From: a virus
Taxonomy: Duplodnaviria > Caudoviricetes
Reading direction: 5' to 3' (one strand)
IMG/VR virus record: IMGVR_UViG_3300027278_000003
DNA: 64,000 nucleotides
The notes under the pieces were generated by a model, which searched no databases, was not told the DNA's origin, and was given only the letters and a program-made list of their open reading frames with translations. The position numbers and the translations under genes were made by a program. Below, piece by piece: positions 16,024 to 63,910 of the stretch. The number at the start of each line of letters is the position of its first letter. Within the stretch, counting starts at the first letter, position 1.

Positions 16024-16869
16024 ATGACAAATTTAATGGATCAACTTGCGTCTTATCGTAAGGAAATCGATCTAGATTTTATAAAGAACACACATGTACA
16101 TTACTGCACACCATGTTATGGTGGACAAGTTACAGAGCCATTCTTCCGTTCGTGGAGCCGCGCCCATATGATGTACACAAAATACAACATTCCATACTCA
16201 GTAACAACTAGTGCCAACGAGTCTCTTATTTCAAGGGCTCGTTGTCACATGGTTGCATATTTCCTAGCAAATCCAAAAGCAACACACTTGATGTTCATCG
16301 ATGCGGACATCAATTTTGATGCTTTGGACATTTTGCATATGCTACAACACGATAAAGATATTATTGTCGGTGCATACCCAAAGAAAGAATTGGATTGGCG
16401 AAATATCTATAAACGTGCAGATATGGGAATTAAAAATGGTGATGAACTAAAAGATGCAGGTGCAAACTATGCATTGAACTTTGAATGGAATTTCAAAGAA
16501 GATAATACTCGAAATCTAAAGATTGAAAACGGACTAGTCAAGCTGAAAGACGCAGCTACTGGTTTTATGTTAATCAAGCGTAGTGTATTCGACAGAATGA
16601 TTGAAGCGTACCCAGAACTATACTTCAATAACGACTTGAACTTAGATGCAGAATTTGCAAAGTGGACATATCTATTTTTCGATTGTATGCACGAACAAGA
16701 CACCAAGCGTTATCTCTCGGAAGACTATGCGTTTTGTCGTCGTTGGCAAAAAATCGGCGGTGAAGTATGGTTAGATCCACTAGTGAAACTAGATCACGTT
16801 GGTCATTACACTTTTAACGGTAATGTCAGTAAGATTTTTCTATCTTCTGATGATACTGATTTGAGTTGA
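16024..16869 (+). CDS. GT-A fold glycosyltransferase-like protein
   Basis: TPCYGG, NESLISRAR, THLMFIDAD, YLSEDYAFC, LDHVG. Confidence 0.75.
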   Translation: MTNLMDQLASYRKEIDLDFIKNTHVHYCTPCYGGQVTEPFFRSWSRAHMMYTKYNIPYSVTTSANESLISRARCHMVAYFLANPKATHLMFIDADINFDALDILHMLQHDKDIIVGAYPKKELDWRNIYKRADMGIKNGDELKDAGANYALNFEWNFKEDNTRNLKIENGLVKLKDAATGFMLIKRSVFDRMIEAYPELYFNNDLNLDAEFAKWTYLFFDCMHEQDTKRYLSEDYAFCRRWQKIGGEVWLDPLVKLDHVGHYTFNGNVSKIFLSSDDTDLS

Positions 16870-16894
16870 CACGAATCGCAAATACAAGTATTAT
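16866..16894 (+). promoter_or_regulatory. Sigma70 promoter with CGAATCG (GANTC) in spacer, upstream of prkA operon
   Basis: TTGACA-CGAATCGCAAATACAAG-TATTAT, 17-nt spacer. Confidence 0.65.
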
Positions 16895-16927
16895 TAAAAC
16901 ATCATAGAAAAGCGGAGAATATATTAT

Positions 16928-18862
16928 ATGGGCGTTCTAGAAAAGTTTACCAAAGTTTATGCTAGTAAGCAAGAAGATGAAATGTCAATTGCTGAATACT
17001 TAGAACTTTGTAAGACAGATCGGCTTGCATATGCTACAGCGGCGGAGCGTATGCTACAAGCAATCGGTGAACCTGAAATTGTTGACACAAGTTCAGATCC
17101 ACGACTAAGCCGTATCTTCTTAAACCGTACTATTAAAGTTTATCCAGCATTCAAAGATTTCTTTGGAATGGAAGAAACAATTGAGCGCCTGGTCGCTTAT
17201 TTCCGACATTCTGCACAAGGTCTAGAAGAAAAGAAACAAGTACTTTATCTTCTTGGTCCAGTTGGTGGTGGTAAATCATCACTCGCAGAGCGTTTAAAAG
17301 AACTAATGGAAGTACATCCAATCTATGTACTAAAAGCAGGCGACGAACTATCGCCAATATTTGAAACTCCTCTAGGATTGTTTGAACCAAAGCAGTTCGC
17401 AGCAGACCTAGAAGAAGAATATGGTATCTCAAAGCGTTATATCAACGGTCTACTTTCACCGTGGGCAGTAAAGCGTCTTGATGAATTTAGTGGTGATATT
17501 ACAAAGTTCTCAGTAGTCAAGATGTACCCAAGTAAGTTGAAGCAAATTGGCATCATGAAAACTGAACCCGGTGATGATAACAACCAAGACATTTCATCAC
17601 TAGTAGGCAAGACTGATATTCGTAAACTAGAATATTTCTCACAAAACGATCCGGACTCATACGCATTCTCCGGTGGTCTCTGCCGAGGCAACCAAGGTAT
17701 GATGGAGTTCGTTGAAATGTTCAAAGCACCAATTAAAGTGCTTCACCCACTACTTACTGCAACGCAGGAAGGCAACTACATGGGGACAGAAGGCATTTCA
17801 GCTATTCCATTCAACGGTGTAGTAGTTGCACACTCTAACGAAAGCGAATGGGAAGCATTCCGCAACAACAAGAACAACGAAGCGTTCTTGGATCGTGTTT
17901 ACATTGTTAAAGTTCCATACTGCTTGCGCACAGATGAAGAAACACACATCTATGCAAAGATGCTACAGTCTTCTGGTCTAGACAATTCGAAGTGCGCACC
18001 TCACACACTTGAAATGCTTGCACAGTTCACAGTTCTGTCACGTTTGAAAGAACACACAAACTCAAATCTTCCAGCGAAGATGCGAGTGTACAATGGCGAA
18101 AATCTACAAGATGTTGACCCAAGAGCAAAGACGATGCAAGAATATAAAGATGTTGCAGGTGTTGATGAAGGTATGAGTGGTATTTCTACTCGTTTCGCTT
18201 TCAAAATTCTGTCACAGACATTCAACTTTGACACAAATGAAGTTAGTGCAGACCCAGTACACTTGATGTATGTTCTAGAAACCGCAATCAAGCGTGAACA
18301 ATTCCCAGAAGAAACGGAGCAACGTCTTCTTTCATACATCAAAGACTATCTAAGTGTTCGTTATGCAGAGCAAGTAGGTAATGAAATTCAGAAAGCATAT
18401 CTAGAAAGTTATAACGAATATGGACAGAACTTGTTTGATCGTTATCTAGATTATGCGGATCACTGGATTCAAAATATTGATTACAAAGATCCCGATACCG
18501 GTAACCTCTTTGATCGTTCAATTCTAAATGAAGAACTTGAAAAGATTGAAAAACCAGCTGGCATCGCAAATCCAAAAGACTTCCGTAATGAAGTCGTTAA
18601 TTGGGTTCTTCGTGCGCGAGTTAAATATGACGGTAACAACCCACCTTGGACTGCATACGAAAAGATGCGTGAAGTTATCGAAAACAAGATGTTCGCAGGA
18701 ACAGAAGAACTACTTCCAGTTATTTCTTTCGGCAGCAAAAAGTCAAAAGAAGAAGAACAGAAGCACAACGACTTTGTTTCACGCATGATCGAAAAGGGTT
18801 ATACCGGGCGTCAGGTAAAACGACTAGTAGAATGGTATATGCGCGTACAAAAGTCTAACTAA
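16928..18862 (+). CDS. prkA: PrkA/YeaG family AAA+ serine protein kinase
   Basis: LLGPVGGGKSSLAERLK, TEPGDDNNQDIS, EFVEMFK, NEAFLDR. Confidence 0.95.
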   Translation: MGVLEKFTKVYASKQEDEMSIAEYLELCKTDRLAYATAAERMLQAIGEPEIVDTSSDPRLSRIFLNRTIKVYPAFKDFFGMEETIERLVAYFRHSAQGLEEKKQVLYLLGPVGGGKSSLAERLKELMEVHPIYVLKAGDELSPIFETPLGLFEPKQFAADLEEEYGISKRYINGLLSPWAVKRLDEFSGDITKFSVVKMYPSKLKQIGIMKTEPGDDNNQDISSLVGKTDIRKLEYFSQNDPDSYAFSGGLCRGNQGMMEFVEMFKAPIKVLHPLLTATQEGNYMGTEGISAIPFNGVVVAHSNESEWEAFRNNKNNEAFLDRVYIVKVPYCLRTDEETHIYAKMLQSSGLDNSKCAPHTLEMLAQFTVLSRLKEHTNSNLPAKMRVYNGENLQDVDPRAKTMQEYKDVAGVDEGMSGISTRFAFKILSQTFNFDTNEVSADPVHLMYVLETAIKREQFPEETEQRLLSYIKDYLSVRYAEQVGNEIQKAYLESYNEYGQNLFDRYLDYADHWIQNIDYKDPDTGNLFDRSILNEELEKIEKPAGIANPKDFRNEVVNWVLRARVKYDGNNPPWTAYEKMREVIENKMFAGTEELLPVISFGSKKSKEEEQKHNDFVSRMIEKGYTGRQVKRLVEWYMRVQKSN

Positions 18863-18871
18863 GGACTTATA

Positions 18872-20161
18872 ATGGCAAACACTATCATTGATCGAAGAAA
18901 AAATCCTGGCGGAAAAAGTTCAGGTAATCGTCAAAAGTTCATTAAAAGAACTAAAGATGAAATTAGAAAAAGCATCCACGAGTCTTTAGGCAAACGCAGC
19001 ATCAAAGGTTCGGGGGACGATCAAGAAGTGGTCATTACTCGTAAAGGTATAAGTGAACCGCAATTCAATCACAAGAGCGATAGCGGTTCACGTGATATTG
19101 TTCTCCCAGGAAACGAAGATTTCGTAGAAGGGGACTTGCTACAGAAACCAAAAGGTGGAGGCTCTGGTGGAGGCTCTGGTGAAGGGAAAGCAAGCAATGA
19201 GGGCGAAGGCGAAGACGAATTTGGTTTTGCTCTCAGCAATGACGAATTTATCAATATACTTTTCGAAGACCTAGAACTTCCTCACATGATTAGCAAAGAG
19301 AACAAAACAGTAGAACGTTTTGAAATGTCTCGCAGTGGCTATACCAATGAAGGTAACCCCGCACAGCTAAATCTAGAACAGAGTATGATTAATTCAATGG
19401 GTCGTAAGATCGCATTGAAAACGCCAAAGCTACGTAAGATACGTGAACTTGAAGCGATACTTGAAACTGAGGAAGACGAAGATAAGCGTTTAGAACTTGA
19501 AGAAGAAATTCGTAAACTACGAATTCGTGCAAATTCGGTAGCATTCGTTGATCCAGTAGATTTACGTTACAATAACTTTTCCAAGAAACCTAGACCTACT
19601 TCACAAGCTGTTGTGTTTTTTGTTATGGACGTTTCTGCGTCTATGACAGAGTTTCATAAAGAACTTGCAAAACGCTATTTCATGCTATTGAACTTGTTTA
19701 TTTCTCGCAAGTATAAGCGAGTAGAATGTGTGTTCATTAGGCACCACATTACTGCACGTGAATGTTCCGAAGAAGAATTCTTCAATCTCAGGGAAAACGG
19801 TGGTACAACCGTAAGTAGTGCATTTGAACTTGCGAAAGATATTCTTAAAGATAGGTATTCGCCAAATGAGTGGAACATCTATTTCGCACAAGCAAGCGAT
19901 GGTGACAACTGGAGTGAAGACAACGAAAAATTGAAGAATATTCTGTCAAAAGATATTCTACCAATCACACAGTATTTTAGTTATATTCAGGTTGGTGAAA
20001 TGCGTAAAGGTAGCTATTACGCGTCTGGTAACCTAATTGACGAATACAAGAAGCTAGAAAGCACACACAAAAATCTCATATCTAAGTATATTGAGAATAG
20101 ATCAGACATCTATCCAGTATTCCGAGAAATATTTAAGAAACAGGACGCAAAAGCTAAATGA
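18872..20161 (+). CDS. yeaH: YeaH/YhbH (DUF444) vWA-like protein
   Basis: IIDRRKNP, VLPGNEDFVEGD, MDVSASM, FIRHH, ASDGDN. Confidence 0.93.
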   Translation: MANTIIDRRKNPGGKSSGNRQKFIKRTKDEIRKSIHESLGKRSIKGSGDDQEVVITRKGISEPQFNHKSDSGSRDIVLPGNEDFVEGDLLQKPKGGGSGGGSGEGKASNEGEGEDEFGFALSNDEFINILFEDLELPHMISKENKTVERFEMSRSGYTNEGNPAQLNLEQSMINSMGRKIALKTPKLRKIRELEAILETEEDEDKRLELEEEIRKLRIRANSVAFVDPVDLRYNNFSKKPRPTSQAVVFFVMDVSASMTEFHKELAKRYFMLLNLFISRKYKRVECVFIRHHITARECSEEEFFNLRENGGTTVSSAFELAKDILKDRYSPNEWNIYFAQASDGDNWSEDNEKLKNILSKDILPITQYFSYIQVGEMRKGSYYASGNLIDEYKKLESTHKNLISKYIENRSDIYPVFREIFKKQDAKAK

Positions 20162-21657
20162 GTAATCTACTATACACCGGTACACATTGGGACTTCGACA
20201 AACTTTATAGCGTCATGGATGCGTGTGAAGAAATCGCAGTCAACGATATGGGACTAGATTGCTTCCCAAACCAAATTGAAATTATCACAGTAGAACAGAT
20301 GCTTGATGCTTACAGCAGTGTTGGCATGCCGCTAATGTATAATCATTGGAGTTTTGGTAAGAGTTTCATCGGAAACATGCAACAGTATCGCAAAGGCCAC
20401 ATGGGCCTTGCATACGAACTTGTTATTAATAGTAATCCTTGCATCAACTATTTGATGGAAGAAAACTCTATGACTACGCAGGCACTTGTTATTGCACATG
20501 CTGCATTCGGTCACAATCACTTCTTTAAGAACAACTATTTGTTCAAGCAGTGGACATCGCCTGATGCCATTGTAGATTATCTTGTATTTGCTAAAAATTA
20601 TATTCGTGAATGCGAAGAACGTTACGGTGAAGCACTCGTTGAGGAAACTCTTGATGCTTGCCACGCAATTCAATATCAGAGTATTAACAAGTATAAGCGT
20701 CCTACGAAGTTGAACGCAAAACTTGAAGCAGAAAAACAACGTGAACGTAGTCAATATCTACAATCGCAGGTGAATGACCTTTGGAGAACAGTACCAAAGA
20801 AAGAAGAAGATAAGAAAGCAGAAAAACGAGTATGGCCAAGTGAACCAGAAGAAAATCTACTTTACTTCTTAGAAAAGCATTCTCCGGTACTTCGTCCATG
20901 GCAACGTGAGATTTGTCGCATTGTTAGACGTATTGCACAATACTTCTATCCGCAATATCAAACAAAAGTTATGAACGAAGGTTTTGCAAGTTTCACGCAT
21001 CACTACATCTTCAATGAACTTTATAATCAAGGAAAAGTTGACGATGGTGCGATGATTGAATTCTTCAAATTGCACAGTGCGGTGTTGTATCAACCAAACT
21101 TCAATTCAAAGCATTACAGTGGATTCAATCCATATGCTCTTGGATTTGCAATTCTAAAAGATGTACAACGTGCATGTGAGACACCTGACAAAGAAGATGA
21201 AGAATGGTTCCCACATATTGTCGGAACTGATTGGCGCGAAACTATTCGTGACATTGTTGCGAATTATCGTGACGAAAGTGCAATTCGTCAATTCTTAGGT
21301 CCAAAAGTAATTCGTGATTGGAAATTGTTCACTCTGCACGATGAAGAATATTTTGACAACTATGTTGTTACAAGTATTCACAATGAAAAAGGATATCGTG
21401 ATGTTCGTAAGAGTCTTAGCGCACAGTACGAAACAGCAGCGATGATTCCAGATATTCAGGTCACGGAAGCAGATATCACAGAAACACGTGAGTTGACACT
21501 TACTCACCACAGTTATCAAGGTCGCAGATTGAATAAGAAAGATGCAGATCAAGTTCTTATCAATATTCAAAAGCTGTGGGGATACGATGTTAGATTGTAC
21601 AGTATGTACAACGATGAAACGTTAGATGTATATGAATGTAAACGTCTCATAAAATAA
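20158..21657 (+). CDS. ycgB: SpoVR/YcgB family protein
   Basis: GMPLMYNHWSFGK, AYELVINSNPC, HAAFGHNHFFKNN, TKVMNEGFAS. Confidence 0.95.
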   Translation: MSNLLYTGTHWDFDKLYSVMDACEEIAVNDMGLDCFPNQIEIITVEQMLDAYSSVGMPLMYNHWSFGKSFIGNMQQYRKGHMGLAYELVINSNPCINYLMEENSMTTQALVIAHAAFGHNHFFKNNYLFKQWTSPDAIVDYLVFAKNYIRECEERYGEALVEETLDACHAIQYQSINKYKRPTKLNAKLEAEKQRERSQYLQSQVNDLWRTVPKKEEDKKAEKRVWPSEPEENLLYFLEKHSPVLRPWQREICRIVRRIAQYFYPQYQTKVMNEGFASFTHHYIFNELYNQGKVDDGAMIEFFKLHSAVLYQPNFNSKHYSGFNPYALGFAILKDVQRACETPDKEDEEWFPHIVGTDWRETIRDIVANYRDESAIRQFLGPKVIRDWKLFTLHDEEYFDNYVVTSIHNEKGYRDVRKSLSAQYETAAMIPDIQVTEADITETRELTLTHHSYQGRRLNKKDADQVLINIQKLWGYDVRLYSMYNDETLDVYECKRLIK

Positions 21658-21661
21658 TAAT

Positions 21662-22980: not shown

Positions 22981-23895
22981 TTGATGCAGCTAAAAGGTAA
23001 AGTACTAGTGACAGGCGGCGCCGGGTATATCGGTACGGAGTTAGTGTCACAGTTAATAAGAGATGGATATCAAGTTTCGGTTCTTGATAAAAAAGAAAAA
23101 CCGCAAGGATGGGAGCATATCAAGTATATCAAAGGCGATATACAAAATGCAGCAAAATGCGTTATGGCTTGTGCCGGCCAAGACTATGTTATACACTTAG
23201 CCGCAAAGCCTCGTATCCCTGAAAGTTTCATCAACCCAGATGATTATTACGACAATAACGTGACTGGTACGAAAAATATGCTAACTGCCGCAGCCGCAGT
23301 TGGTGTGCGAAAGTTTGTTTATGCGAGTAGTTCAAGTGTATACGGTAACAATCCCGCCCCGCACAAACCGTACCACAAACCTGACCCATTGAATTATTAT
23401 GCTATGACCAAGTTGTTTGGGGAGCATCTTTGTAAACAGTACAAGAATATGTTCGATTTGAACTACAATGTGCTTCGTTTCTTTACCGTATATTCAGAAG
23501 ATCAGCCCAACACAAATGAAGGTGGTTTGATGATTGGTAAGTTTGCTCGACTAGCAAAAGAGGGTGAGCCTCTAACAATTCATGGTGAAGGGGATTACAT
23601 GCGAGATTACGTACACGTGACCGATGTTGCACGTGCGTGTATTGCAAGTATGGAAAGCAAAGTAAAGAGTGAAATTTTCAACGTTGGTACTGGTACGAAT
23701 ATATCAGTGAATGCTGTTGTAGAAATTCTTCGAAAGTATGCGCCTAATCTAGAGACTATAAATATAGATAACCCAAAAGGGTATGCTAAAGAGACTTTAG
23801 CAGACATATCAAAAATTAAAAAACTACTAGATTGGCATCCGACTGTTTCAATCGCAGACGGAATAGACAGGACTTTTAAGAATCTATTACAATGA
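22981..23895 (+). CDS. NAD-dependent epimerase/dehydratase
   Basis: VTGGAGYIG, HLAA, ASSSSVYG, YAMTK, RDYVHVTDVA. Confidence 0.92.
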   Translation: MMQLKGKVLVTGGAGYIGTELVSQLIRDGYQVSVLDKKEKPQGWEHIKYIKGDIQNAAKCVMACAGQDYVIHLAAKPRIPESFINPDDYYDNNVTGTKNMLTAAAAVGVRKFVYASSSSVYGNNPAPHKPYHKPDPLNYYAMTKLFGEHLCKQYKNMFDLNYNVLRFFTVYSEDQPNTNEGGLMIGKFARLAKEGEPLTIHGEGDYMRDYVHVTDVARACIASMESKVKSEIFNVGTGTNISVNAVVEILRKYAPNLETINIDNPKGYAKETLADISKIKKLLDWHPTVSIADGIDRTFKNLLQ

Positions 23896-24797
23896 AACAT
23901 GCAACATATCACACTAGAGAAAAACATAAATCAGAAACCGTATTGAAGTGGTCGATTGTACTACTTTCAATATTCATAATAATAGAAGTGTGGGGCTGGG
24001 TCATCACAAACTCACTTGCCCTACTAGGAGATGCTGGGCATTTGGCAACAGATGTACTTGCCTTGTGTGTTACTCTCTTCGGCTTCTATGTAGGCAAGAG
24101 GAAACCAACCGACGAATATTCTTATGGGTACAGACGTAGTGAAGTACTCGCTGCACTCTTTAATGCCATAGCGTGGTTTGTTCTATTCGGGTTTATTATA
24201 TATGAATCAATACGGCGAATAGTCCATGTTGAGGCAGTTGATCCTCTACCGATGATTGGCATTGCGGTTATTGGTCTACTAGCAAATATTGTAGTATTTA
24301 AATTACTACATGCCGGGCATTCGCATGACAATATAAACATGCGTGGAGCAATATTACATGTTCTCATGGATATATTCGGAAGTGTTGCAGCTATTGTTGC
24401 AGGTATAATTATATATTTTACAGATTGGTATTATGCTGATCCTATCATGTCTGTCATACTAGCAGGTATTATTTTACGTAGTGGTTGGGAATTATTACGC
24501 GACAGTGTAAACATTCTTATGGAACGCAAACCGGATAACATAGATATTAAAAAACTCAAAGAAACATTAATGACATACGTAGACGATGTTATCGATGTTC
24601 ATCATATACATATATGGGAAATATCAAGTGGTCAGGTTGCGGCAACACTACACATATCGCTAATTGATGGTGGTAGCTGCAATGATGCAATTTATAATGC
24701 AAAGAAAACATTACATAAAGAATTTGGAATAGTACATGCAACTATTCAAGCGGAGCATGGAAATTGCCCAGACGAGGAATTATTTTATGACGTATGA
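23892..24797 (+). CDS. CDF family Zn/Co/Cd efflux transporter (ZitB/CzcD-like)
   Basis: SLALLGDAGHLATD, YGYRRSEVLAA, NMRGAILHVLMD, HHIHIW, HATIQ. Confidence 0.92.
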   Translation: MKHATYHTREKHKSETVLKWSIVLLSIFIIIEVWGWVITNSLALLGDAGHLATDVLALCVTLFGFYVGKRKPTDEYSYGYRRSEVLAALFNAIAWFVLFGFIIYESIRRIVHVEAVDPLPMIGIAVIGLLANIVVFKLLHAGHSHDNINMRGAILHVLMDIFGSVAAIVAGIIIYFTDWYYADPIMSVILAGIILRSGWELLRDSVNILMERKPDNIDIKKLKETLMTYVDDVIDVHHIHIWEISSGQVAATLHISLIDGGSCNDAIYNAKKTLHKEFGIVHATIQAEHGNCPDEELFYDV

Positions 24798-28207: not shown

Positions 28208-28232
28208 AAAGTGCGCTTCGGCGCACTTTTTT
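28208..28232 (+). terminator. Rho-independent terminator with cUUCGg loop
   Basis: AAAGTGCGC-TTCG-GCGCACTTT-TTT. Confidence 0.9.
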
Positions 28233-28233
28233 A

Positions 28234-28262
28234 TTGACATCTAATACTTTATATGCTATAAA
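28234..28262 (+). promoter_or_regulatory. Sigma70 promoter of tmRNA
   Basis: TTGACA-N17-TATAAA. Confidence 0.75.
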
Positions 28263-28268
28263 TAAACT

Positions 28269-28622
28269 GTTAGCGTTGAAGCAACGTGGACACATACTGG
28301 ACTCGGGTGCGAATCCCGACAGCTCCACCACAAACACACTTTGAAAGCGTATGTTATACAGCAAAAGCAAGGTGGTCTAGGAACGGTAGTACGATGAGGA
28401 ACCCTAGTACGATTACAGGTTCAAATCCTGTAAAGTGTGTTTTTGATGGGGCTGAATTAGGAATCGACAGGTGTGAAGATAGAGTGGAGTTAACCGTGGT
28501 GACCTACGTTATTCGGTCAAACTTTATAACTGCAAACACAAACGCAGCGCCAGCAATGGCAAAACTAGCGGCTTAATAGCACGTGGGGGTTGGCAACTTA
28601 CCTAGCAACAGAAAAGTTGCAA
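28269..28622 (+). ncRNA. ssrA: Circularly permuted (two-piece) tmRNA; tag ANTNAAPAMAKLAA
   Basis: 3' acceptor piece first (T-arm TCGGG-TGCGAAT-CCCGA, CAGCTCC-ACCA ending 28330); 5' GGGGCTG at 28448 pairs with it including G3.U70; tag frame 28532-28576 after ATAACT; outer ends approximate. Confidence 0.93.
28332..28442 (+). ncRNA. tRNA-like element inside the tmRNA intervening segment
   Basis: 11-bp closing stem AAACACACTTT/AAAGTGTGTTT, canonical T-arm ACAGG-TTCAAAT-CCTGT, D-arm-like TGGTCTAG..GGTA. Confidence 0.55.
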
Positions 28623-28639
28623 CTTAACGGAGTTTATAT

Positions 28640-28972
28640 ATGTCAGAAGAATTTGGTATTGGTCCAGATGAACTTAGAGGTCTAATTGGTGGTATTTTGA
28701 TCATCGTTGATATTCGCGACGAGGATAATGTTGATGCCCAAGGACGCATTAAAGATGCGTTCGAAATAGAAGAATACGATCTTCCAAATCACGTTTCTGC
28801 GGTACCGATGTACTTTAGAACTGCAAACTGTGTTATCATTTGTGAAACCGGCGAGGTTGCACGTAAATGGGTAGAAACATATCGTAGTCAAGATGATGAT
28901 GTTCAACTTCTTCGCTACTATATTGGTGGTTCTGCCGCACTCTTTGAGGAAGTACCGGAGTTAGTATCGTAA
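28640..28972 (+). CDS. Rhodanese-like domain protein
   Basis: IIVDIRDE..GRIKDA..VIICETG..YYIGGSAA. Confidence 0.6.
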   Translation: MSEEFGIGPDELRGLIGGILIIVDIRDEDNVDAQGRIKDAFEIEEYDLPNHVSAVPMYFRTANCVIICETGEVARKWVETYRSQDDDVQLLRYYIGGSAALFEEVPELVS

Positions 28973-31562: not shown

Positions 31563-31591
31563 TTGACATAATGGACGAATCACTCTATACA
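31563..31591 (+). promoter_or_regulatory. Sigma70 promoter with CGAATCA (GANTC) in spacer
   Basis: TTGACA-TAATGGA-CGAATCA-CTC-TATACA. Confidence 0.7.
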
Positions 31592-31614
31592 TATATATGT
31601 AAGTGATAAAGGAC

Positions 31615-32010
31615 ATGAAAATGAACACTGTTGTAGATACCGTCGCAGCCATCGCAGATTCATTCGAATACTGGGGCAAACAGCAATCCGCACTGGGTTA
31701 TGAATCAATCTGGTCAATTTACGATGCTGGTAACGTAGACCTCGACTTTGAAATTTTCAATAACAAAATGCGTCAAGTGCGCTATGAATATATTCGTCCT
31801 GATGCAACGACCGAAGAATTAATGACAGACCTACGCGATGGTGGAAAGCGTTCATCAGCAGAAGTTACGATGTTTGCAACAGACGGTTCTGTTAAGTCTC
31901 TTTGGTTCGCTGCCGAATCTTGCATTCGTCAGAGCGGTACACATCATCGCTATATCGAAGATTTTGAAATGCAAGAAGATGGTTCTCTTATGCTAATCAC
32001 AGGTTCGTAA
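31615..32010 (+). CDS. Hypothetical protein
   Basis: AAGGA RBS, downstream of promoter. Confidence 0.75.
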   Translation: MKMNTVVDTVAAIADSFEYWGKQQSALGYESIWSIYDAGNVDLDFEIFNNKMRQVRYEYIRPDATTEELMTDLRDGGKRSSAEVTMFATDGSVKSLWFAAESCIRQSGTHHRYIEDFEMQEDGSLMLITGS

Positions 32011-32303
32011 TGAAAATCATACATTACTATCGCTATGACTCATATGTTGCCGAAGTTTATGGTCTGCCATTAGCAGAGATTGAAACTCGGTATATTCGTG
32101 GTGATTATCCTATTGCAGATGATCTTAGTCGGATGGCGTCAATGAGTAAAATGTACAACGCAGGCAAAGTATGGCGAAAGATTGATAACGAACCTATAAC
32201 AATAATTAAATCGCGTGATGGAAATAATGAGTTTGACGAACACGAATTCATTCAAATGCTATTCCTTGCAGAAATTGCAGGACCAGTAAGCCTAGGTGCA
32301 TGA
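32010..32303 (+). CDS. Hypothetical protein
   Basis: TAATG coupling. Confidence 0.65.
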   Translation: MKIIHYYRYDSYVAEVYGLPLAEIETRYIRGDYPIADDLSRMASMSKMYNAGKVWRKIDNEPITIIKSRDGNNEFDEHEFIQMLFLAEIAGPVSLGA

Positions 32304-32644
32304 TGGAAAAATGGCAGAAGCAACTTATCAACGGTATGTATGGTATAAAAAAAGGTGAGATGAATATTGTGTCATATGGTGGGCGTGGTTCTGGCAAGTC
32401 GTTATTATTACAAAAATTCATTGAATCATTTCAAGCACAAACCAAACTTATGGAACAATGTATCGAAAAAGGCTATACAACAGTTGTCATTAACCCATCC
32501 CAAATGACCACTGCAAATCGTAATGCAATGATTGAATGGTGCAAACAAAACTGTGAAAAAGATTTCAGTTCATTTGTAGCGGCTTATGGATTCTTCTTTT
32601 TTGAAAGCCAAAAGGATGCGGAGTTCTTTGCACTAGTTTGGTAG
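32300..32644 (+). CDS. Hypothetical protein (degenerate P-loop GGRGSGKS)
   Basis: ATGA coupling. Confidence 0.6.
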   Translation: MMEKWQKQLINGMYGIKKGEMNIVSYGGRGSGKSLLLQKFIESFQAQTKLMEQCIEKGYTTVVINPSQMTTANRNAMIEWCKQNCEKDFSSFVAAYGFFFFESQKDAEFFALVW

Positions 32645-32710: not shown

Positions 32711-34222
32711 ATGATATTTCCAATTATTACCTTTATGGTCGCAATTTGTATTGCGTTCATCGCAGGATGGTTTTCAATCGCTGGTCTTATGGCGATTTTT
32801 GCCGCCTCTGCAATACCAGTTGCCATCATGGCTGGCGCACTTGAAGTAGGTAAACTTGTTTCCGCTTCATGGGTATATCGTAATTGGAAGAGGGCACCGT
32901 TTCTACTGAAAAGCTACCTAACAATGGCTACAGTAGTTCTTATGTTCATTACATCTATGGGCATTTTTGGCTTTTTGTCAAGAGCGCACTTAGAACAAGC
33001 TGCACAGGGACAAGAAAATGCAGCACGTATTGAACGTAGTGAAAATGATATTCTCAGAAATGAAGAATTGATCACTCGCACAGAAGCAAAAATCGAAAAA
33101 CTGGATAGTGAATCTGCAAATGATACAAGTGCAGTACAAGCACAAATCGATGCAGAACAAGCACGTATGGATCAAGCATATGCACGTATCCAACCAGCAA
33201 TTGATGATCAAAATGCTATCATTGCAAGTGAAAACTCAAACGAAGATGTTCAAGTTTACATGGACCAAATCAAAAGAGTTGACGAAAAACTTGATTTAAT
33301 TCAACAGTATGTTTCAAACAATCAAATTCGTGAACTTCAAGGTCTAGTTGGCGTTCCTCAAGATGGGAACTACGGTTCACAAACTGCATCCGCAGTTGAT
33401 CGTTTCCGTACAAATCAACTTGCAGAAAAACAACGTCTACAAGGTGTAATTGAGCAACTACGCAATTCAGTTGATAGTGATGCAGTTATTGCAGCACGTG
33501 CGGAAATCGCACGTTTGCGTTCTATTGCAGAAGTTGAAGTTGCGACTTCACAGGAAACTATTAGTCGTTTGAGACAAGAGCTTGCATCAAGTGCAGAGAT
33601 TGACAACACAGCAGAGATTGAACTTCTAATTGCTAAAATTGGCGAGACAGAAAGTGCTATTGGCGTTCTACAGGACGAAAAGTTTGCACTAGAAAGTGAA
33701 ATTCGCAAACTTGAAGCAGAAGTTGGCCCAATCAAATACATCGCTGAATTAGTTTATGGTAATACAGAGCGTGATACTATTGATGCAGCCGTACGTTGGC
33801 TTATCATTGTGTTTATTTTTGTGTTCGACCCACTAGCTGTTCTTCTACTAATCGCAGCAAACTTTAGCTTCCAGAACCGCAATGAAGGCGGTAGACAGGA
33901 AGAAATTTTTGATGTTCTTTTTTCTAAAAATCATAATAACGATGAAAAATCACTTGACAAACCGACCTCAATGAGTGATAATATAGTTATTGAAACACCA
34001 AAAGAAACAGATGTGGTAGTGGAAAATAAAGATTTAGCAGAAGTTCGTGCAGGCAAAAAAGAGTATGTACTTCGTGAAAATGCTGCAAAGTCAGTAAATA
34101 TCGAAGACGTAGTTGACAGTGCATCACCAGAAGCATTAGAAAAAATGCAGAAGGCGCTTGAACGAAAGCTAAATACAGAAGCAGTTAAGAAATCTGGTTG
34201 GCTAGACGACCTAAACAACTAA
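32711..34222 (+). CDS. Membrane protein: N-terminal TM helices, long coiled coil with peptidoglycan-binding motif, C-terminal TM
   Basis: Hydrophobic N-terminus; IRELQGLVGVPQDGNYGSQTASAV; WLIIVFIFVFDPLAVLLLIAA. Confidence 0.75.
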   Translation: MIFPIITFMVAICIAFIAGWFSIAGLMAIFAASAIPVAIMAGALEVGKLVSASWVYRNWKRAPFLLKSYLTMATVVLMFITSMGIFGFLSRAHLEQAAQGQENAARIERSENDILRNEELITRTEAKIEKLDSESANDTSAVQAQIDAEQARMDQAYARIQPAIDDQNAIIASENSNEDVQVYMDQIKRVDEKLDLIQQYVSNNQIRELQGLVGVPQDGNYGSQTASAVDRFRTNQLAEKQRLQGVIEQLRNSVDSDAVIAARAEIARLRSIAEVEVATSQETISRLRQELASSAEIDNTAEIELLIAKIGETESAIGVLQDEKFALESEIRKLEAEVGPIKYIAELVYGNTERDTIDAAVRWLIIVFIFVFDPLAVLLLIAANFSFQNRNEGGRQEEIFDVLFSKNHNNDEKSLDKPTSMSDNIVIETPKETDVVVENKDLAEVRAGKKEYVLRENAAKSVNIEDVVDSASPEALEKMQKALERKLNTEAVKKSGWLDDLNN

Positions 34223-49307: not shown

Positions 49308-49335
49308 TTGACATCCTCGCGAATCATGCTATAAC
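49308..49335 (+). promoter_or_regulatory. Sigma70 promoter with CGAATCA (GANTC) in spacer
   Basis: TTGACA-TCCTCG-CGAATCA-TGC-TATAAC. Confidence 0.7.
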
Positions 49336-49369: not shown

Positions 49370-49819
49370 ATGCTGGTAGTATTTGACATTGACGGAACCT
49401 TAGCAAACATCGAGCATCGGCTGGATTATGTTCGCAGCAAACCAAAGAACTGGAAGGCGTTTGACGCTGGCATTCCGAATGATGTTGTGAATCCACATGT
49501 GGCAGCAGCGTTCTTTGCTCTGCGTGATGCTGGTCACGACATTGTGTTTGCCAGTGGTCGTAACGAGCGTAGCGGTGATGCTACTGTAGCATGGCTGGAT
49601 GCTAATGGCTTTTGGAGCGTTGATTCGCATCTGTTCATGCGTAAGGCAGACGACTTCCGCAGCGATGACATTGTCAAGCAAGAAATCTTGGATCAAATCA
49701 TTGCGGACTACGGTAAAAAGCCTGACATGGTGTTTGATGATCGTCCACGTGTTGTGCGCATGTGGCGTGATAACGGTATCTTTGTTTTTAATGTATATCA
49801 AGGTGAAGAGGACTTCTAA
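49370..49819 (+). CDS. HAD 3'-phosphatase (T4 Pnk/PseT C-terminal domain as stand-alone protein)
   Basis: VFDIDGTLA, ASGR, MRKADDFRSDDIVK, FDDRPRVVRMWR. Confidence 0.88.
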   Translation: MLVVFDIDGTLANIEHRLDYVRSKPKNWKAFDAGIPNDVVNPHVAAAFFALRDAGHDIVFASGRNERSGDATVAWLDANGFWSVDSHLFMRKADDFRSDDIVKQEILDQIIADYGKKPDMVFDDRPRVVRMWRDNGIFVFNVYQGEEDF

Positions 49820-50148
49820 TGTCACTAATTGAAAAACTTAAATGGTTCTGGAACCCACAAACCGAAGCAGAGAAGGCTTACGAAACCGACCCTCTTCGTC
49901 GGCGTAATCAATTATTGAAAGTTTATATCAAAGGAGTTGACAACCCATTTATCAGAGTGTATAGTCAAGAGGATGTTAGGGGTCGTGATTGGGTGTTTAG
50001 AAACGCTAACGAGAATTCGTTTAACTCTGATCTTAATAGTTGGCTTGATAAACGTGGTAGTGACGGAATTCGTATTGGTAACGTTTGGCATGCTCCAGAA
50101 TCAATTGATCGAATCGAACTAGGTCAACAAACTGTAGAGGAACTGTAA
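49819..50148 (+). CDS. Hypothetical protein
   Basis: TAATG coupling. Confidence 0.65.
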   Translation: MSLIEKLKWFWNPQTEAEKAYETDPLRRRNQLLKVYIKGVDNPFIRVYSQEDVRGRDWVFRNANENSFNSDLNSWLDKRGSDGIRIGNVWHAPESIDRIELGQQTVEEL

Positions 50149-50318
50149 TGCTCGGAGTTACACTAGCTATTATGTTTGCGGGCTATATGATTGCTGACGC
50201 TATTCTATTCGTGAATGGATATAAAAGTTGGATCTTTTACGCCAAAACTGATCAAGAAAAAGCAGTTCGCCAGAGGTGGTTCCGAGACCGAGAAATTCAA
50301 TGGGATGAAGAACAATGA
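50148..50318 (+). CDS. Unlisted 56-aa membrane protein MLGVTLAIMFAGYMIADAILF...
   Basis: Coupled TAATG/ATGA overlaps; N-terminal hydrophobic helix. Confidence 0.6.
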   Translation: MLGVTLAIMFAGYMIADAILFVNGYKSWIFYAKTDQEKAVRQRWFRDREIQWDEEQ

Positions 50319-50941
50319 GTGCTTATCCTTGGTCTAGAATACAATACACTGATCTGGCAACCGAAGCATATGTTCTTATGAATGAGAACGAAATCAACGG
50401 TTGCGAGTATCACAACAACAGTCATATTGAAGCGATGTATCAGTATCTTGAAGATACAAACGTTCCATACGATTCCAATCTTGATTGGGCAGTAATGTTT
50501 CACGACATTGTGTATGATAATCAACCAGATAAAGAAGAACGTTCTGCATTGCTATTCTACGATATGTGTAAACAATATAGCGGATTTAGCAATTATGAAG
50601 TTGATTTGATTGAGATTGGTATTCTTATCGGGCAGACTATTCGCCACGAAGTCACAACTTGGTCAAAAGATACTCATAAAGCACTTATTCGTGCAGACCT
50701 TCACGCATTGACTGACAAAGTGCAAACAACAAATAACTTTGTAAGGATTATGAATGAGTCTATGAACTTGTATGGTTGCACGGTTGAAGAATTTGCACGA
50801 AACAACATTTCGTTTATGCAAAAACTCAAAGAAACTATGATGCTGAATATTTTGGTTGACAATGTGAACGAATCATTCTATAACAGTGTCATAGAGGGTA
50901 TTGACACAACTCGCAAACTAGCACAAGCATTGGAGAAATAA
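50315..50941 (+). CDS. HD-domain metal-dependent phosphohydrolase
   Basis: YHNNSHI, FHDIVYD, EERSA, IRADL. Confidence 0.75.
   Translation: MSAYPWSRIQYTDLATEAYVLMNENEINGCEYHNNSHIEAMYQYLEDTNVPYDSNLDWAVMFHDIVYDNQPDKEERSALLFYDMCKQYSGFSNYEVDLIEIGILIGQTIRHEVTTWSKDTHKALIRADLHALTDKVQTTNNFVRIMNESMNLYGCTVEEFARNNISFMQKLKETMMLNILVDNVNESFYNSVIEGIDTTRKLAQALEK
50856..50884 (+). promoter_or_regulatory. Intragenic sigma70 promoter with CGAATCA (GANTC) in spacer
   Basis: TTGACA-ATGTGAA-CGAATCA-TTC-TATAAC inside HD gene, upstream of kinase. Confidence 0.6.
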
Positions 50942-51477
50942 TGTCTGAACCTATTTGTTATGTAATGGTTGGCTTGCCTGGTTTGGGCAAATCCACTATT
51001 GTAAATGGTATGTATAAAGATGTTGATACTTTCATTTACAGCACTGACCAATTCATTGAAGAAGCGGCCGCCAACTTTGGTAAGACTTATAATGAAGCGT
51101 TTGAAGATAACATCAAAGCAGCAACAGAGTCCATGAACGCACTGTTAGATGATGCAATTAAAGAACAGCGAGACATCATCTGGGACCAAACCAACCTTGG
51201 TGAAGGCAAGCGTAAGAAAATCATCAACCGTATGAAGCAAGCGGGATACCAAGTTCGTTGTGAATGTATCATTCCACCAGAAGCAGGGTGGTTCGATGAT
51301 CAAAAAGCGTGGGCCTATCGCTTGCGCAATCGTCCTGGAAAAACTATTCCACAAAACATCTTGACTAATATGATCGAATCATTTACTGTCCCTACTGTAG
51401 CGGAAGGTTTTGATATGATCACTTTCTACAATATGCATGGTGCCTTGCTTGGCATTGATTATGGAGTTGACGAATGA
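50941..51477 (+). CDS. P-loop kinase (polynucleotide-kinase-like, AAA_33)
   Basis: MVGLPGLGKST, YSTD, IIWDQTNL, RLRNRPGKTIP. Confidence 0.85.
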   Translation: MSEPICYVMVGLPGLGKSTIVNGMYKDVDTFIYSTDQFIEEAAANFGKTYNEAFEDNIKAATESMNALLDDAIKEQRDIIWDQTNLGEGKRKKIINRMKQAGYQVRCECIIPPEAGWFDDQKAWAYRLRNRPGKTIPQNILTNMIESFTVPTVAEGFDMITFYNMHGALLGIDYGVDE

Positions 51478-51623
51478 AGCAGTACATTGTTGAAGTTTAC
51501 GTTGCAGATCAAAAAGTAAAACAGTTTGTAACTGAATCCTACGATATTGCCGAAACCATCGCAGAAAACATTGCTGACGATATTACTGACACACGTATCA
51601 AAGAAGTAGAACTAGGAGCATAA
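51474..51623 (+). CDS. Unlisted 49-aa protein
   Basis: GGAG RBS, ATGA overlap. Confidence 0.55.
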   Translation: MKQYIVEVYVADQKVKQFVTESYDIAETIAENIADDITDTRIKEVELGA

Positions 51624-51626
51624 GAT

Positions 51627-52757
51627 ATGCACTACAAGTTTCCAGAAATTCGCCATCTTGACGATGTTCTGCCTTACATTCAAACTCGCGGGGAATTCAT
51701 TCTAGCGGAGCGTGAAGGTTACAAGGTAGTAAACTACGTTGTTGCTATGGCTGATACGTTTGATATGACTGGACCTGATGATTTAGGTGGTGCTATTCGC
51801 CGTGAATGCCGTGGCCTTATTTTTGACCGTGAAGGCTATATTATTTCGCGTCCATTCCACAAGTTCTTCAACATCAATGAACGTGAAGAAACTCAATCTC
51901 ACGTGGTTGATATGTCGCAAGATCACATCATTATGGAAAAGATGGATGGTTCAATGATCCGTCCTATCGTGGTTGACGGCTATCTTCGTCTTGCTACCAA
52001 GATGGGTGTAACCGAGGTTGCGATGCAAGCAGAAACGTGGCTTGCTGCACAAGACCCCGCCAAAAAAGAGTGGATGCGTGACGCTTTTGACCGCAATGAA
52101 ACTCCTATCTTTGAGTGGATTAGCCCGTTCAACCAGATTGTTCTTGCATACGAAGAAGCAGACCTTGTTTACCTTGGTAGCCGTAATAACTTTACTGGTG
52201 AATACATGTTTGACGAAGCGGCACCGTTCACCAAGGTTCCTCGTTATGGTTCGGTAGAAGGTAATATTAGTGACTACATTGCCCGCCAGCGTCAAGCAGA
52301 AGGTCGTGAAGGTGACATCATCCGTTTTGCTGATGGACACATGCTGAAAGTTAAAAACGATTGGTATGTACGTATCCACAAGACTGTGGATCGCATTGTG
52401 TTTGAACGTAATATCGTTAACTTGATTATCAATGAAGAAATCGACGATGTTATGCCGATGCTGCCGGTTGTTCAAGCTAACCGTGTTCGTAACTTTGAAA
52501 TTCGTTTCTGGAAAGCGTTTAAGCAAACTGAAAACCGTCTCTATGGTCTTCGTATGGCGTGTGATCAATCGTATGAGGGTGACCGCAAAGCAATCGCTAC
52601 GCAGTTTGTTCCGACTGTGGAAGACAAGCAAATGGTTCCTCTGTTGTTCCGTGTTCTTGATGGTAACGATGTTCGTGATGTTCTAATGCAGCACGTAGAA
52701 AAGCAACTGTTTACTAACGTCAAGTGGGACGCTTGTGCAAAATGGATGGGGATGTAA
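51627..52757 (+). CDS. RNA ligase, T4 Rnl1 family
   Basis: RECRGLIF, RPFHKFFN, motif I EKMDGS, FEW, EG, KVKN. Confidence 0.92.
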   Translation: MHYKFPEIRHLDDVLPYIQTRGEFILAEREGYKVVNYVVAMADTFDMTGPDDLGGAIRRECRGLIFDREGYIISRPFHKFFNINEREETQSHVVDMSQDHIIMEKMDGSMIRPIVVDGYLRLATKMGVTEVAMQAETWLAAQDPAKKEWMRDAFDRNETPIFEWISPFNQIVLAYEEADLVYLGSRNNFTGEYMFDEAAPFTKVPRYGSVEGNISDYIARQRQAEGREGDIIRFADGHMLKVKNDWYVRIHKTVDRIVFERNIVNLIINEEIDDVMPMLPVVQANRVRNFEIRFWKAFKQTENRLYGLRMACDQSYEGDRKAIATQFVPTVEDKQMVPLLFRVLDGNDVRDVLMQHVEKQLFTNVKWDACAKWMGM

Positions 52758-52773
52758 AAATCCCCATCTTTTT
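52745..52773 (+). terminator. Rho-independent terminator
   Basis: GATGGGGAT-GTAAAA-ATCCCCATC-TTTTT. Confidence 0.8.
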
Positions 52774-52774
52774 C

Positions 52775-52802
52775 TTGACATCCTTGCGAATCATGCTATA
52801 TT
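52775..52802 (+). promoter_or_regulatory. Sigma70 promoter with CGAATCA (GANTC) in spacer
   Basis: TTGACA-TCCTTG-CGAATCA-TGC-TATATT; near-copy of 49308 promoter. Confidence 0.7.
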
Positions 52803-52832: not shown

Positions 52833-53072
52833 ATGATGCAGTTCAAAGTTGTTAGCGAAACTGTTGCTGTTGCTACTAACAGCATTAAACCTGTTCGTAT
52901 CGAACGCTTTGTTGATACAAACAACTATGATCGCAACCATTGGATGCTGTATACGCCAGAAGGTGGACTTGATGATGCGTTTACGTCTCGTGGGCCGTTC
53001 GTTTCATTTGATGCTGCAAAGCGCAACGCCGAAATGAATGTTGGTGTGACGATGACCTGGGAGGCAGCATAA
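52833..53072 (+). CDS. Hypothetical protein
   Basis: AAGGA RBS, downstream of promoter. Confidence 0.7.
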   Translation: MMQFKVVSETVAVATNSIKPVRIERFVDTNNYDRNHWMLYTPEGGLDDAFTSRGPFVSFDAAKRNAEMNVGVTMTWEAA

Positions 53073-53243
53073 TGGCATTGATGTCGCAAAGGCGAACTGG
53101 TTGGATACGGGGTTGTTCCAAGTAGCAGTTATGACCCACGTAAAGATTCACACACGTATGTTCCAGAACCTCCGAAATCAACAACTAAAAAACCTGACGC
53201 AGAAGTCATTCCGTTCAATGTGATTAAAGGCGATAAAGTATGA
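53072..53243 (+). pseudogene. Small gene apparently frameshifted near its start
   Basis: ATG 53072 frame stops after 17 codons; another frame (53082-53243) is open for 53 codons without a start and ends overlapping next ATG. Confidence 0.4.
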
Positions 53244-57584: not shown

Positions 57585-57585
57585 A

Positions 57586-57756: not shown

Positions 57757-58235
57757 TTAGAGCAATTCTAGCATGTGATGATGATTGGGGTATCGGCAAA
57801 GATGGCGACCTACCTTGGCCTCACAATCCAGCGGATTTGAAATGGTTTAAAGAAAAGACTGTAGGTGGGGTTGTTGCAATGGGTAAAGCAACGTGGGACA
57901 GTCTACCGAATAAACCTCTACCCAAACGTAACAATATTGTGGTCACACGTAGTACTGATGATAAGCGGGGGCCTTATCATTTTCTAACATTCGAACAAGC
58001 AGAAACTCATTTGGTTAGTATGAGTAAGTTGCAAAATGTATGGATTATCGGTGGGGCAAAACTTATTGAAGGTTTGTTACCTATCATCGAAGAATTTCAT
58101 CTGAGTAGAATTAGTGGAACATATGAATGTGATACATTTCTACCCAGCACACCTATTCTTGAAAACTATACATTAGTTAGTAGCGAAATGCAGGGAGATG
58201 TCTACGTAGACATTTATCGTCGCCGTGATAATTAA
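57753..58235 (+). CDS. folA: Dihydrofolate reductase
   Basis: GIGKDGDLPWP, DLKWFK, MGKATWDSL, PLPKRNNIV, WIIGG, CDTF. Confidence 0.95.
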   Translation: MIRAILACDDDWGIGKDGDLPWPHNPADLKWFKEKTVGGVVAMGKATWDSLPNKPLPKRNNIVVTRSTDDKRGPYHFLTFEQAETHLVSMSKLQNVWIIGGAKLIEGLLPIIEEFHLSRISGTYECDTFLPSTPILENYTLVSSEMQGDVYVDIYRRRDN

Positions 58236-58825: not shown

Positions 58826-58837
58826 AAGGTTACTATA

Positions 58838-62282: not shown

Positions 62283-62334
62283 CAACATAGTGCCAGTGTG
62301 CTATATTGACGGCATAAACAACTAGGAGAATAGT

Positions 62335-62718: not shown

Positions 62719-62720
62719 TA

Positions 62721-62822: not shown

Positions 62823-63010
62823 AGTATGCAGTAAAGATAATGCTTGCCGCCGATGATTGGATTTATATTACAGAAGATACACATGGTAAATGTTGGGATC
62901 TAAACCCTGTTCTGTTTGAAACACAAGAGCAAGCAGAAGATTTCGCTAAGTCATGGCGCAAACGTGGAAAAGAACGTTACGTACAAGTAGTAGAATACGA
63001 TGCATCCTAA
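62819..63010 (+). CDS. Hypothetical protein
   Basis: ATG 62819; DWIYITED motif. Confidence 0.6.
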   Translation: MKYAVKIMLAADDWIYITEDTHGKCWDLNPVLFETQEQAEDFAKSWRKRGKERYVQVVEYDAS

Positions 63011-63173
63011 ATTTAAAGAAGCAGTGAGTTGGGCATTTCATTCTGAGGATGAAGATGCTATTCGCAATGAACTTGGTTATGACGGTGACATGGAAACCGT
63101 ATATGTTGTAGTTGCACTTCTGAATAAGTTAAAAGCAGATTATGACGAAGTACACTATTGGAGTGAAAGTTAG
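63000..63173 (+). CDS. Unlisted 57-aa protein
   Basis: Fills gap; overlaps next start. Confidence 0.5.
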   Translation: MHPKFKEAVSWAFHSEDEDAIRNELGYDGDMETVYVVVALLNKLKADYDEVHYWSES

Positions 63174-63712
63174 TGCCAGTACATGCGATGATCGACTTGG
63201 AAACGCTGGGAACTAAACCTGACTGTCAAGTTCTTACTATTGGCGGAATCAAGTTCGATCCAAATACTAAGGAAGAACCTTGGAGTGAGTTCTACATGCA
63301 ACTTGATATCGATGATCAAGAACACATGGGTAGAAGCGTTGACAATGATACACTTGAATGGTGGGGGAAACAAGAGCCAGAAATCATCGAAGCTGCATTT
63401 ACTCCGCATAATCGTATTCTTCCAAAAACTATGCTTCAAGAATTGAAGAAATGGTGCGTTGGCGTGGATACGTTCTGGGCGCAAGGAGTTTCATTTGATA
63501 TTGTTATCATTGAAAACATGTGCAGAATGTATGATATTCCAATCCCATGGCCATTCTGGAAAGTAAAAGATAGTCGCACGTTGCTTGGTATCGTGTCTAT
63601 GGACCCGCGCAAACGCTACCAGTTTGCTGCACACAATGCACTAGAAGATTGTCGCATTCAAGCAAAGAGTGTACAAGATGCTATTGCAGAACTTGGAATT
63701 CAAATCAGATAG
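63173..63712 (+). CDS. DEDD 3'-5' exonuclease (DexA/DUF5051-like)
   Basis: MIDLETLG, WAQGVSFD, HNALEDC. Confidence 0.88.
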   Translation: MPVHAMIDLETLGTKPDCQVLTIGGIKFDPNTKEEPWSEFYMQLDIDDQEHMGRSVDNDTLEWWGKQEPEIIEAAFTPHNRILPKTMLQELKKWCVGVDTFWAQGVSFDIVIIENMCRMYDIPIPWPFWKVKDSRTLLGIVSMDPRKRYQFAAHNALEDCRIQAKSVQDAIAELGIQIR

Positions 63713-63881
63713 GTGAAACATTGAAGACGTATTGAAATTTATATTTGTGTATCTACTTGGCGCATTCACTGCGATTGGACTGACCGCAATATTGCATATT
63801 GACAGTTGGGAATATTGTAACGCACGTTACGACAATCCCGAAGATGTGTCAGAATGTCAATGGTTACTACACAATATTTGA

Positions 63882-63910
63882 TTGACATTTATATACGAAT
63901 CGTATATAAA
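63882..63910 (+). promoter_or_regulatory. Sigma70 promoter with CGAATCG (GANTC) in spacer
   Basis: TTGACA-TTTATATA-CGAATCG-TA-TATAAA, 17-nt spacer. Confidence 0.6.

Follow-up and report, generated by a model that had tools for sequence, protein, structure and literature searches.

Well-described promoters of the GcrA/CcrM module include those of Caulobacter crescentus (PcsM, ctrA P1 and PmipZ), which are read by sigma70 and carry a single GANTC of the form YGAKTCK in their spacer near -20. The consensus site of Caulobacter GcrA, obtained with MEME from chromatin immunoprecipitation data, is TGATTCG and more broadly YGAKTCK (Haakonsen et al., PMC4647560). GcrA boxes upstream of the start site are centred at -20 ± 1 or -30 ± 2, and others lie at +5 to +30 (Wu et al., PMC9976885). 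In the cryo-electron microscopy structure of GcrA with RNA polymerase, the scaffold (PcsM, box at -20) reads TTGACA-CCCGGG-CGAATC-CCTGC-TATAAT on its non-template strand (PMC9976885). Here, we analysed a 64,000-nt stretch of virus DNA (the window), taken from the minus strand of the 112,630-bp IMG/VR virus record IMGVR_UViG_3300027278_000003 (39.6% G+C), and we describe sigma70-type promoters that hold CGAATCA or CGAATCG, the reverse complement of a GcrA site, between their -35 and -10 elements.

These phage promoters share with the Caulobacter promoters an asymmetric, monomer-type site, the avoidance of GANTC in coding DNA and the strand of the box, as the phage CGAATC occupies the non-template strand in the same way as in the PcsM scaffold. 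They differ in their setting, on a virulent-type T4-like jumbo phage rather than a chromosome, and in having -35 and -10 elements near the E. coli consensus. Compared to Caulobacter, the phage box is almost invariant (CGAATCA), its GAATC lies one base nearer the -10 element, and each genome has dozens of copies of it as a standard early-promoter design, with a dependence on GcrA and methylation that is proposed here by analogy.

Phage T4 provides another comparison. Its early promoters are likewise strong, are read by host sigma70 and combine consensus hexamers with further conserved positions; they too lie before blocks of small open reading frames (ORFs) of the host-takeover type, but they have no GANTC or GcrA-type element in the spacer and need no host co-activator that reads methylated DNA. 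Its middle promoters, which combine a MotA box with sigma appropriation by AsiA, are also a class marked by one additional box, short and asymmetric, whose distance from the -10 element is fixed. However, the MotA box replaces the -35 element at about -30 and is read by the phage's own MotA, whereas the phage promoters described here keep an intact TTGACA and have CGAATCA as their conserved box, at -19, and so are not MotA-dependent middle promoters; no phage-encoded reader was found for them. Nor are they of the T4 late type (TATAAATA at -10 and no -35 element), as they have a -35 element and TATAnn. On the coding strand of the contig, TATAAATA occurs only four times and never at a box promoter.

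Promoters sensitive to Dam methylation of GATC (Mu mom, P1 cre and IS10 pIN) are tied to N6-adenine methylation of a short palindrome, a link that we extend to the phage promoters by analogy. Unlike the phage promoters, they depend on another methylase and site, occur a few times per element, mostly act by relief or imposition of repression and employ no sigma70-bound co-activator. The phiCbK-like Caulobacter phages engage the host's GcrA/CcrM module, as the box phage would by analogy, and encode a GcrA homologue with no GcrA-box promoter class reported (PMC3556154), whereas the box phage has the cis element and no gcrA. A survey of phage genomes with position-specific scoring matrices gave no GcrA-site signal (PMC9437464). 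GcrA-box promoters themselves are well described in Caulobacter; the phage promoter class appears new to the literature, as our literature searches found no report of it.

A spacer box in fixed register with the -10 element

The 112-kb contig contains 14–16 promoters with the box design, TTGACA-N6/7-CGAATC(A/G)-N3-TATAnn, all on the coding strand, and the box pattern has 16 matches in the contig compared to 0–1 for a reversed-pattern control. If GANTC belongs to these promoters by design, it should be enriched by position in promoter spacers, and this expectation of a first-pass annotation of the window is borne out contig-wide (14 of 69 coding-strand promoter-like sites versus 0 of 29 on the other strand). 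Across three contigs, GANTC at -19 occurs in 14/69, 20/116 and 24/163 coding-strand promoter-like sites and almost never on the other strand. In the window, five sites fit TTGACA-N5-20-CGAATCR (31563, 49308, 50856, 52775 and 63882; 0.17 ± 0.40 expected), and at least five were obtained in 0 of 100 shuffles. The bare word CGAATCR is at chance level (16 observed in the window, 15.5 expected), indicating that the signal is positional.

We assembled 73 family promoters from six contigs with only the GANTC held fixed. The resulting box is CGAATCA in 62, AGAATCA in 5, CGAATCG in 2 and another word in 4; a C precedes the GANTC in 67/73, an A follows it in 67/73 and the central base is A in 72/73. In promoters with a 16-nt spacer, the box still ends 3 nt before the -10 element, and it is the gap to the -35 element that changes. 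These measurements bear on a purely compositional origin, in which GAATC would simply be frequent in AT-rich spacers. The chance frequency of the bare word is what such an origin predicts, but it is ruled out by the five window sites against 0.17 expected, the 16 contig matches against 0–1 in the control, the register shared by all 73 promoters and the strict strand bias, leaving it a negligible probability.

All six TTGACA promoters that the first-pass annotation had listed with CGAATCA or CGAATCG in their spacers are present (6/6). Each has sigma70-type -35 and -10 hexamers separated by 16 or 17 nt, and the -10 element is TATAnn, or TATTAT at 16866. The motif was said to end 3 nt before the -10 element in four of them, which is correct for 31563, 49308, 50856 and 52775; the distance is 2 nt at 63882, and at 16866 the motif abuts the -35 element in a different register. 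With the -10 hexamer set to -12 to -7 (start sites inferred), the centre of GAATC falls at -19 or -18 at five sites. The promoter at 28234 is box-less, as had been claimed, and so are other promoter-like sites at 1224, 36906, 46270 and 62279; in total, the box is absent from about half of the window's strong sigma70-like promoters. A generic promoter scan that requires T at -7 misses most box promoters. CtrA boxes (TTAA-N7-TTAAC) have 0 matches in the window compared to 1.6 expected.

Box promoters lead into a gene start or an unannotated stretch 12–57 nt downstream. Their -10 element is followed by a stereotyped leader, GTAAnCAAGAGAGG, which probably marks a start site 7 nt past the -10 element. 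Over the whole contig, this leader reads GTAA(T/G)CAAGAGAGG and continues into the ribosome-binding site; it may be a 5′ untranslated region element with a function of its own.

Other layouts of the box occur in related contigs. Double-box promoters (TTGACA-CGAATCA-CGAATCA-TTA-TA) are found at G443:C1:43917-43941 and 53035-53059 and in L009, where one box abuts the -35 element and the other is at -19, 7 bp apart. In G414:C1 (e.g. at 48828 and 114914), the palindromic variants CGAATCG and CGATTCG are interchangeable at the same position, followed by TGT-TA.

Correspondence with the GcrA site

The first-pass annotation had proposed that the reverse complement of the motif fits the preference of GcrA, and the family-wide data agree. 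CGAATCA becomes TGATTCG, the top GcrA consensus; the bottom strand reads TGATTCG or CGATTCG at 6/6 window sites, all of which fit YGAKTCK, and 69/73 family promoters fit it as well, compared to 12.5% by chance. The constant gap between the box and the -10 element is consistent with a reader held on sigma70 domain 2, to which GcrA binds, and a single non-palindromic 7-bp site suits a monomeric reader.

The composition of the genome also shows a bias at GANTC. No other of the 16 XYNY′X′ palindromes is as depleted as GANTC in the contig (ratio 0.63) or in the related contig G001, and in G002 GANTC ranks second lowest. Coding DNA of the contig contains 201 GANTC sites where 369 are expected, and intergenic DNA contains 29 where 26 are expected. 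CcrM-bearing Alphaproteobacteria show this GANTC bias, which is much weaker elsewhere (Gonzalez et al., PMC3973325). Four lines of evidence, namely the sequence, the strand, the inferred position and the composition of the genome, thus give good support to reading the motif as a GcrA-type box.

On balance, and by analogy with Caulobacter, the phage promoters are probably sigma70 promoters of the early type into which a GcrA box has been built, with GcrA as its reader. Host RNA polymerase would recognise TTGACA and TATAnn, and GcrA, carried as in Alphaproteobacteria on sigma70 domain 2, would dock its N-terminal domain as a monomer on TGATTCG (CGAATCA on the non-template strand). At about -19, the box would be on the side of the DNA that points away from the polymerase, and docking would stabilise both binding and open-complex formation. 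N6-methylation of the GANTC adenines would fall to a CcrM-family enzyme, which could come from the host or be the beta-class methyltransferase encoded by relatives of the phage.

A phage-family promoter element could also be read by a factor other than GcrA, such as a phage early co-activator or sigma70-binding protein that these marine T4-like phages have in common, or by host sigma70 or core enzyme contacting the spacer, in which case its likeness to the GcrA word is coincidental. However, this explanation needs a coincidence of roughly 1 in 1000, as the 7-mer equals the top GcrA consensus on the same strand and in the same register as the solved complex. The minor variants AGAATCA and CGAATCG are also those that YGAKTCK allows, the genome-wide depletion of GANTC is left unexplained and no candidate non-GcrA factor was identified.

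A repressor faces the same coincidence. The box could be a spacer operator through which a phage or host repressor, possibly methylation-sensitive, shuts off early transcription; the location is ideal for steric repression, and with -35 and -10 elements so near consensus an activator may be unneeded. Yet repressors usually bind dyad-symmetric or repeated sites, whereas the box is a single asymmetric 7-mer, and no helix-turn-helix candidate is linked to it. We regard an operator as very unlikely.

Spread across phages and the identity of the reader

An exact-pattern scan of IMG/VR returned at least 112 loci on more than 100 contigs, many with 2–4 copies within a few kb. The carriers are fragments of ~360-kb jumbo genomes (G001-G004, G414, G431 and others) and genomes of ~150–165 kb (G005, G417, G420, G434 and G443), and each box-bearing contig has 4–19 matches compared to 0–1 in the reversed control. 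G001 is syntenic with the window (protein identity 50–89%), the core genes of G005, G417 and G443 are only 25–38% identical, and the box spans T4-like phages whose terminases share only ~32% identity. The G005 terminase, in turn, has 86% identity to the terminase of Melnitz, which infects the non-alphaproteobacterial OM43 clade (PMC9004378).

The cultured relatives Melnitz, HTVC008M and Mosig (the latter two SAR11 phages), cyanophage P-SSM2, PA5oct, 121Q, Atu_ph07 and Phosso, which cover SAR11, OM43, cyanobacterial, Agrobacterium, Sinorhizobium, Pseudomonas and E. coli hosts, all lack the box. A cis element common to distant phages yet absent from near relatives on other hosts suggests that the reader is supplied by the host, and the distribution of the box across lineages points to a host-determined reader.

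The contig itself is a T4-like fragment: it encodes a tail sheath, tail tube, large terminase, gp32-like single-stranded DNA-binding protein, UvsX and class Ia ribonucleotide reductase, and its terminase shares 50–55% identity with the terminases of three jumbo phages, PA5oct, Atu_ph07 and Phosso. CheckV estimates the record to be 31% complete, implying a genome of ~360 kb. Nearly all genes are coded on the window's plus strand. The contig's sequence is contained in marine metagenomes; a single contig of 169 nt from one estuary metatranscriptome matches 52999-53167 exactly, which shows neither transcription nor a start site. The prkA region had no megablast match among cultured phages, and a blastn search of cultured phages with a relative's promoter gave two marginal matches only.

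Whether the activator is encoded by the phage or by its host had been left undecided by the first-pass annotation. A phage-encoded GcrA was not borne out, as neither the contig nor 40 related contigs (41 total) contain a Pfam GcrA match; any GcrA must therefore be the host's. In contrast to the missing activator, a PF01555 methyltransferase is encoded by 5/5 large relatives tested, and these enzymes are beta-class, with CcrM as their best match in the PDB and NCBIfam. The box-less HTVC008M, Melnitz and Mosig encode no PF01555 methyltransferase, and the Melnitz-like, box-bearing G005 has one. P-SSM2 and Atu_ph07 have PF01555-type methyltransferase genes without the box, so that the enzyme alone is not sufficient. 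In G001 and G004, the space that separates the ClpP gene from the DnaB-like gene holds a CcrM-family methyltransferase of 288 aa and an ORF of 243 aa (G001:C1:123394-124032). The same junction in the window (1223-1259) is just 35 nt long and contains a box-less promoter and no methyltransferase.

We infer a host with GcrA and CcrM, methylated sites and GcrA as the reader; that the host is an alphaproteobacterium is suggested by indirect hints in the transfer-messenger RNA (tmRNA) and PrkA of the phage and in the tRNA-His of relatives. The window carries a permuted two-piece tmRNA gene (28230-28624, plus strand; ARAGORN tmRNA*, tag ANTNAAPAMAKLAA) that matches the Rfam alpha_tmRNA family RF01849 (91.7 bits, E = 2.3e-25), and alpha_tmRNA is the best type for the tmRNAs of G001, G005 and G443 too. 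G002 (L130, ~57970-58048) and L099:523-597 encode a tRNA-His with A73, T at -1 and no G-1, and the A73/no G-1 form is considered to occur in the RRCH clade and in most strains of SAR11 alone (PMC3937112). PrkA is 69–71% identical to alphaproteobacterial and 67–68% identical to gammaproteobacterial proteins and sits in an alpha-dominated clade of a quick tree, which is weak evidence of an alphaproteobacterial host. A BLAST search of 401 alphaproteobacterial genomes with the phage tmRNA gave short T-arm matches only and names no host.

A permuted tmRNA is present in every box-bearing large contig examined, with tags including ANNNYAPEMALAA and ANDNVAFAGYALAA. In the window, at 28230-28667, the tmRNA gene lies behind the box-less comparison promoter at 28234-28262 (plus strand; TTGACA-N17-TATAAA, with TGc), which is of the sigma70 type. 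G002 (~121642-121718) and G443 (~94603-94678) also carry CUA-anticodon tRNAs, labelled Pyl by ARAGORN, which may be amber suppressors.

Several observations weigh against a GcrA reader in an alphaproteobacterial host. At the promoters, GAATC at the 16866 site is centred at about -26, outside both published GcrA windows, and there are conserved positions beyond the 7-mer (R before the box and T at -14) that GcrA alone leaves unexplained. Among the phages, the box is missing from the Agrobacterium and Sinorhizobium jumbo phages, even though GcrA and CcrM are present in their hosts, and from the SAR11 phages. In the 401 alphaproteobacterial genomes, the strict box pattern has 18 matches compared to ~23 in the control, and thus no enrichment in a test of low power. 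No PF01555 methyltransferase was found in the 112-kb contig, which CheckV places at 31% of the genome, and the relatives' methyltransferases score 98 bits, too far below the CcrM equivalog cut-off of 830 to indicate their specificity. Melnitz also carries an alpha-type tmRNA with a non-alphaproteobacterial host, making the tmRNA a weak host marker. The tRNA-His of G443 (L076:2737-2811) is of the canonical G-1/C73 kind, which would fit Rhodospirillales-type or non-alphaproteobacterial hosts; the two kinds of tRNA-His hint that the hosts of box-bearing phages fall on either side of the RRCH/RSR split.

Part of this evidence favours a different reader, which is the main rival to GcrA. The conservation past the 7-mer together with the stereotyped leader, the box-less jumbo phages of alphaproteobacterial hosts and the fact that we only infer such a host for the box phages all count towards it, and the box contigs examined in detail, being T4-like throughout, could share a small unannotated factor. 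On the other side, the motif spans phages with ~25–38% core-gene identity, in addition to the coincidence such a factor would require. We judge a different reader to be rather unlikely and keep GcrA as the preferred one.

A related sequence is found in bacteria. Upstream of rplU in one alphaproteobacterial genome (L251:340-370), and identically in two others, a conserved promoter reads TTGACT-N8-CGAATCG-C-TATAGT, with the GcrA-type word beside the -10 element of a ribosomal-protein operon; we set it aside as a phage-type box because its box is only 2 nt from the -10 element, in a different register.

Genes behind the box promoters and their possible role in infection

The six window promoters all lie on the plus strand, together with the prkA operon and the RNA end-healing and sealing genes. 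The promoter at 16866-16894 consists of a -35 TTGACA (16866-16871), CGAATCG (16872-16878) abutting it and a -10 TATTAT (16889-16894), with a 17-nt spacer; its TTGACA-CGAATC arrangement recurs in contigs G443 and G410. The prkA ATG (16928) is 34 nt downstream, and the complete operon comprises prkA (16928-18862), yeaH/DUF444 (18872-20161) and spoVR (20158-21657), the products of the last two being DUF444/YeaH and SpoVR by Pfam. This operon is absent from the syntenic G001 and from G002 and is unique to the window phage among its relatives, which suggests that it was recently acquired. Farther along, at 22981-24797, are genes for an NAD-dependent epimerase/dehydratase and a cation-efflux (CDF) transporter, both kept in G001.

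The intergenic promoter at 31563-31591 (-35 at 31563-31568, CGAATCA at 31576-31582, -10 TATACA at 31586-31591, 17-nt spacer) precedes small ORFs (31603-32644), an ORF at 32711-34222 and clpX at 34233. Two promoters serve a set of RNA end-healing and sealing genes (49370-52757; Pfam HAD_PNKP, AAA_33 kinase and RNA_lig_T4_1). The first, at 49308-49335, has its -35 element at 49308-49313, CGAATCA at 49320-49326 and a TGc extended -10 TATAAC at 49330-49335 after a 16-nt spacer, and lies upstream of the HAD_PNKP phosphatase gene (49370-49819). The second, at 50856-50884 (CGAATCA at 50869-50875, -10 TATAAC at 50879-50884), is located within an ORF (50315-50941), upstream of a P-loop kinase (50941-51477) and a T4 Rnl1-type RNA ligase (51627-52757).

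The RNA-ligase unit is closed by a predicted intrinsic terminator (52744-52769, plus strand; a 10-pair stem with 5 G-C pairs and a T tract), and immediately 3′ of this hairpin is the promoter at 52775-52802 (CGAATCA at 52787-52793, TGc, -10 TATATT at 52797-52802, 16-nt spacer), with small ORFs from 52833 downstream. The last promoter, at 63882-63910, is a variant with CGAATCG (63896-63902) 2 nt from its -10 TATAAA (63905-63910) and GAATC at about -18; a ribosome-binding site and ATG follow at most ~25 nt past its -10 element.

Downstream of the other box promoters are blocks of small ORFs that match no family, as is typical of T4-like early regions. No box promoters were found at the structural-gene end of the contig. 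As small-ORF blocks, RNA-repair genes and prkA lie downstream, it is plausible, judging from gene content, that the box promoters serve one temporal gene class. The epigenetic timer that the first-pass annotation had drawn from this arrangement, through a methylation-sensitive activator, is speculation. In its broadest form, widespread marine T4-like and jumbo phages would run their whole early programme through host GcrA-sigma70 and a phage-borne CcrM-like methyltransferase. Their promoters would fire only on methylated DNA, either injected or modified by the phage enzyme, and would be silent on fresh unmethylated copies, creating an epigenetic early-to-late switch, and the box would mark a phage of a GcrA/CcrM alphaproteobacterium. 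Taken as a whole, we think this scheme unlikely to hold.

If the reader differs from GcrA, the element still defines a new class of promoters, clearly delimited and very widespread, for which a reader has to be found. If GcrA does read the box, this would be the first case in which the standard promoter design of a phage incorporates the sigma70 cofactor with which its host reads methylation; a methylation-based timing hypothesis would be directly testable, and dozens of natural, near-consensus GcrA-box promoters would become available for GcrA biochemistry. The box would then also be a cis-sequence host marker for a large group of uncultured phages (more than 100 IMG/VR contigs, including jumbo genomes of ~360 kb), and the epigenetic module of the alphaproteobacterial cell cycle would be tied to viral infection in the ocean.

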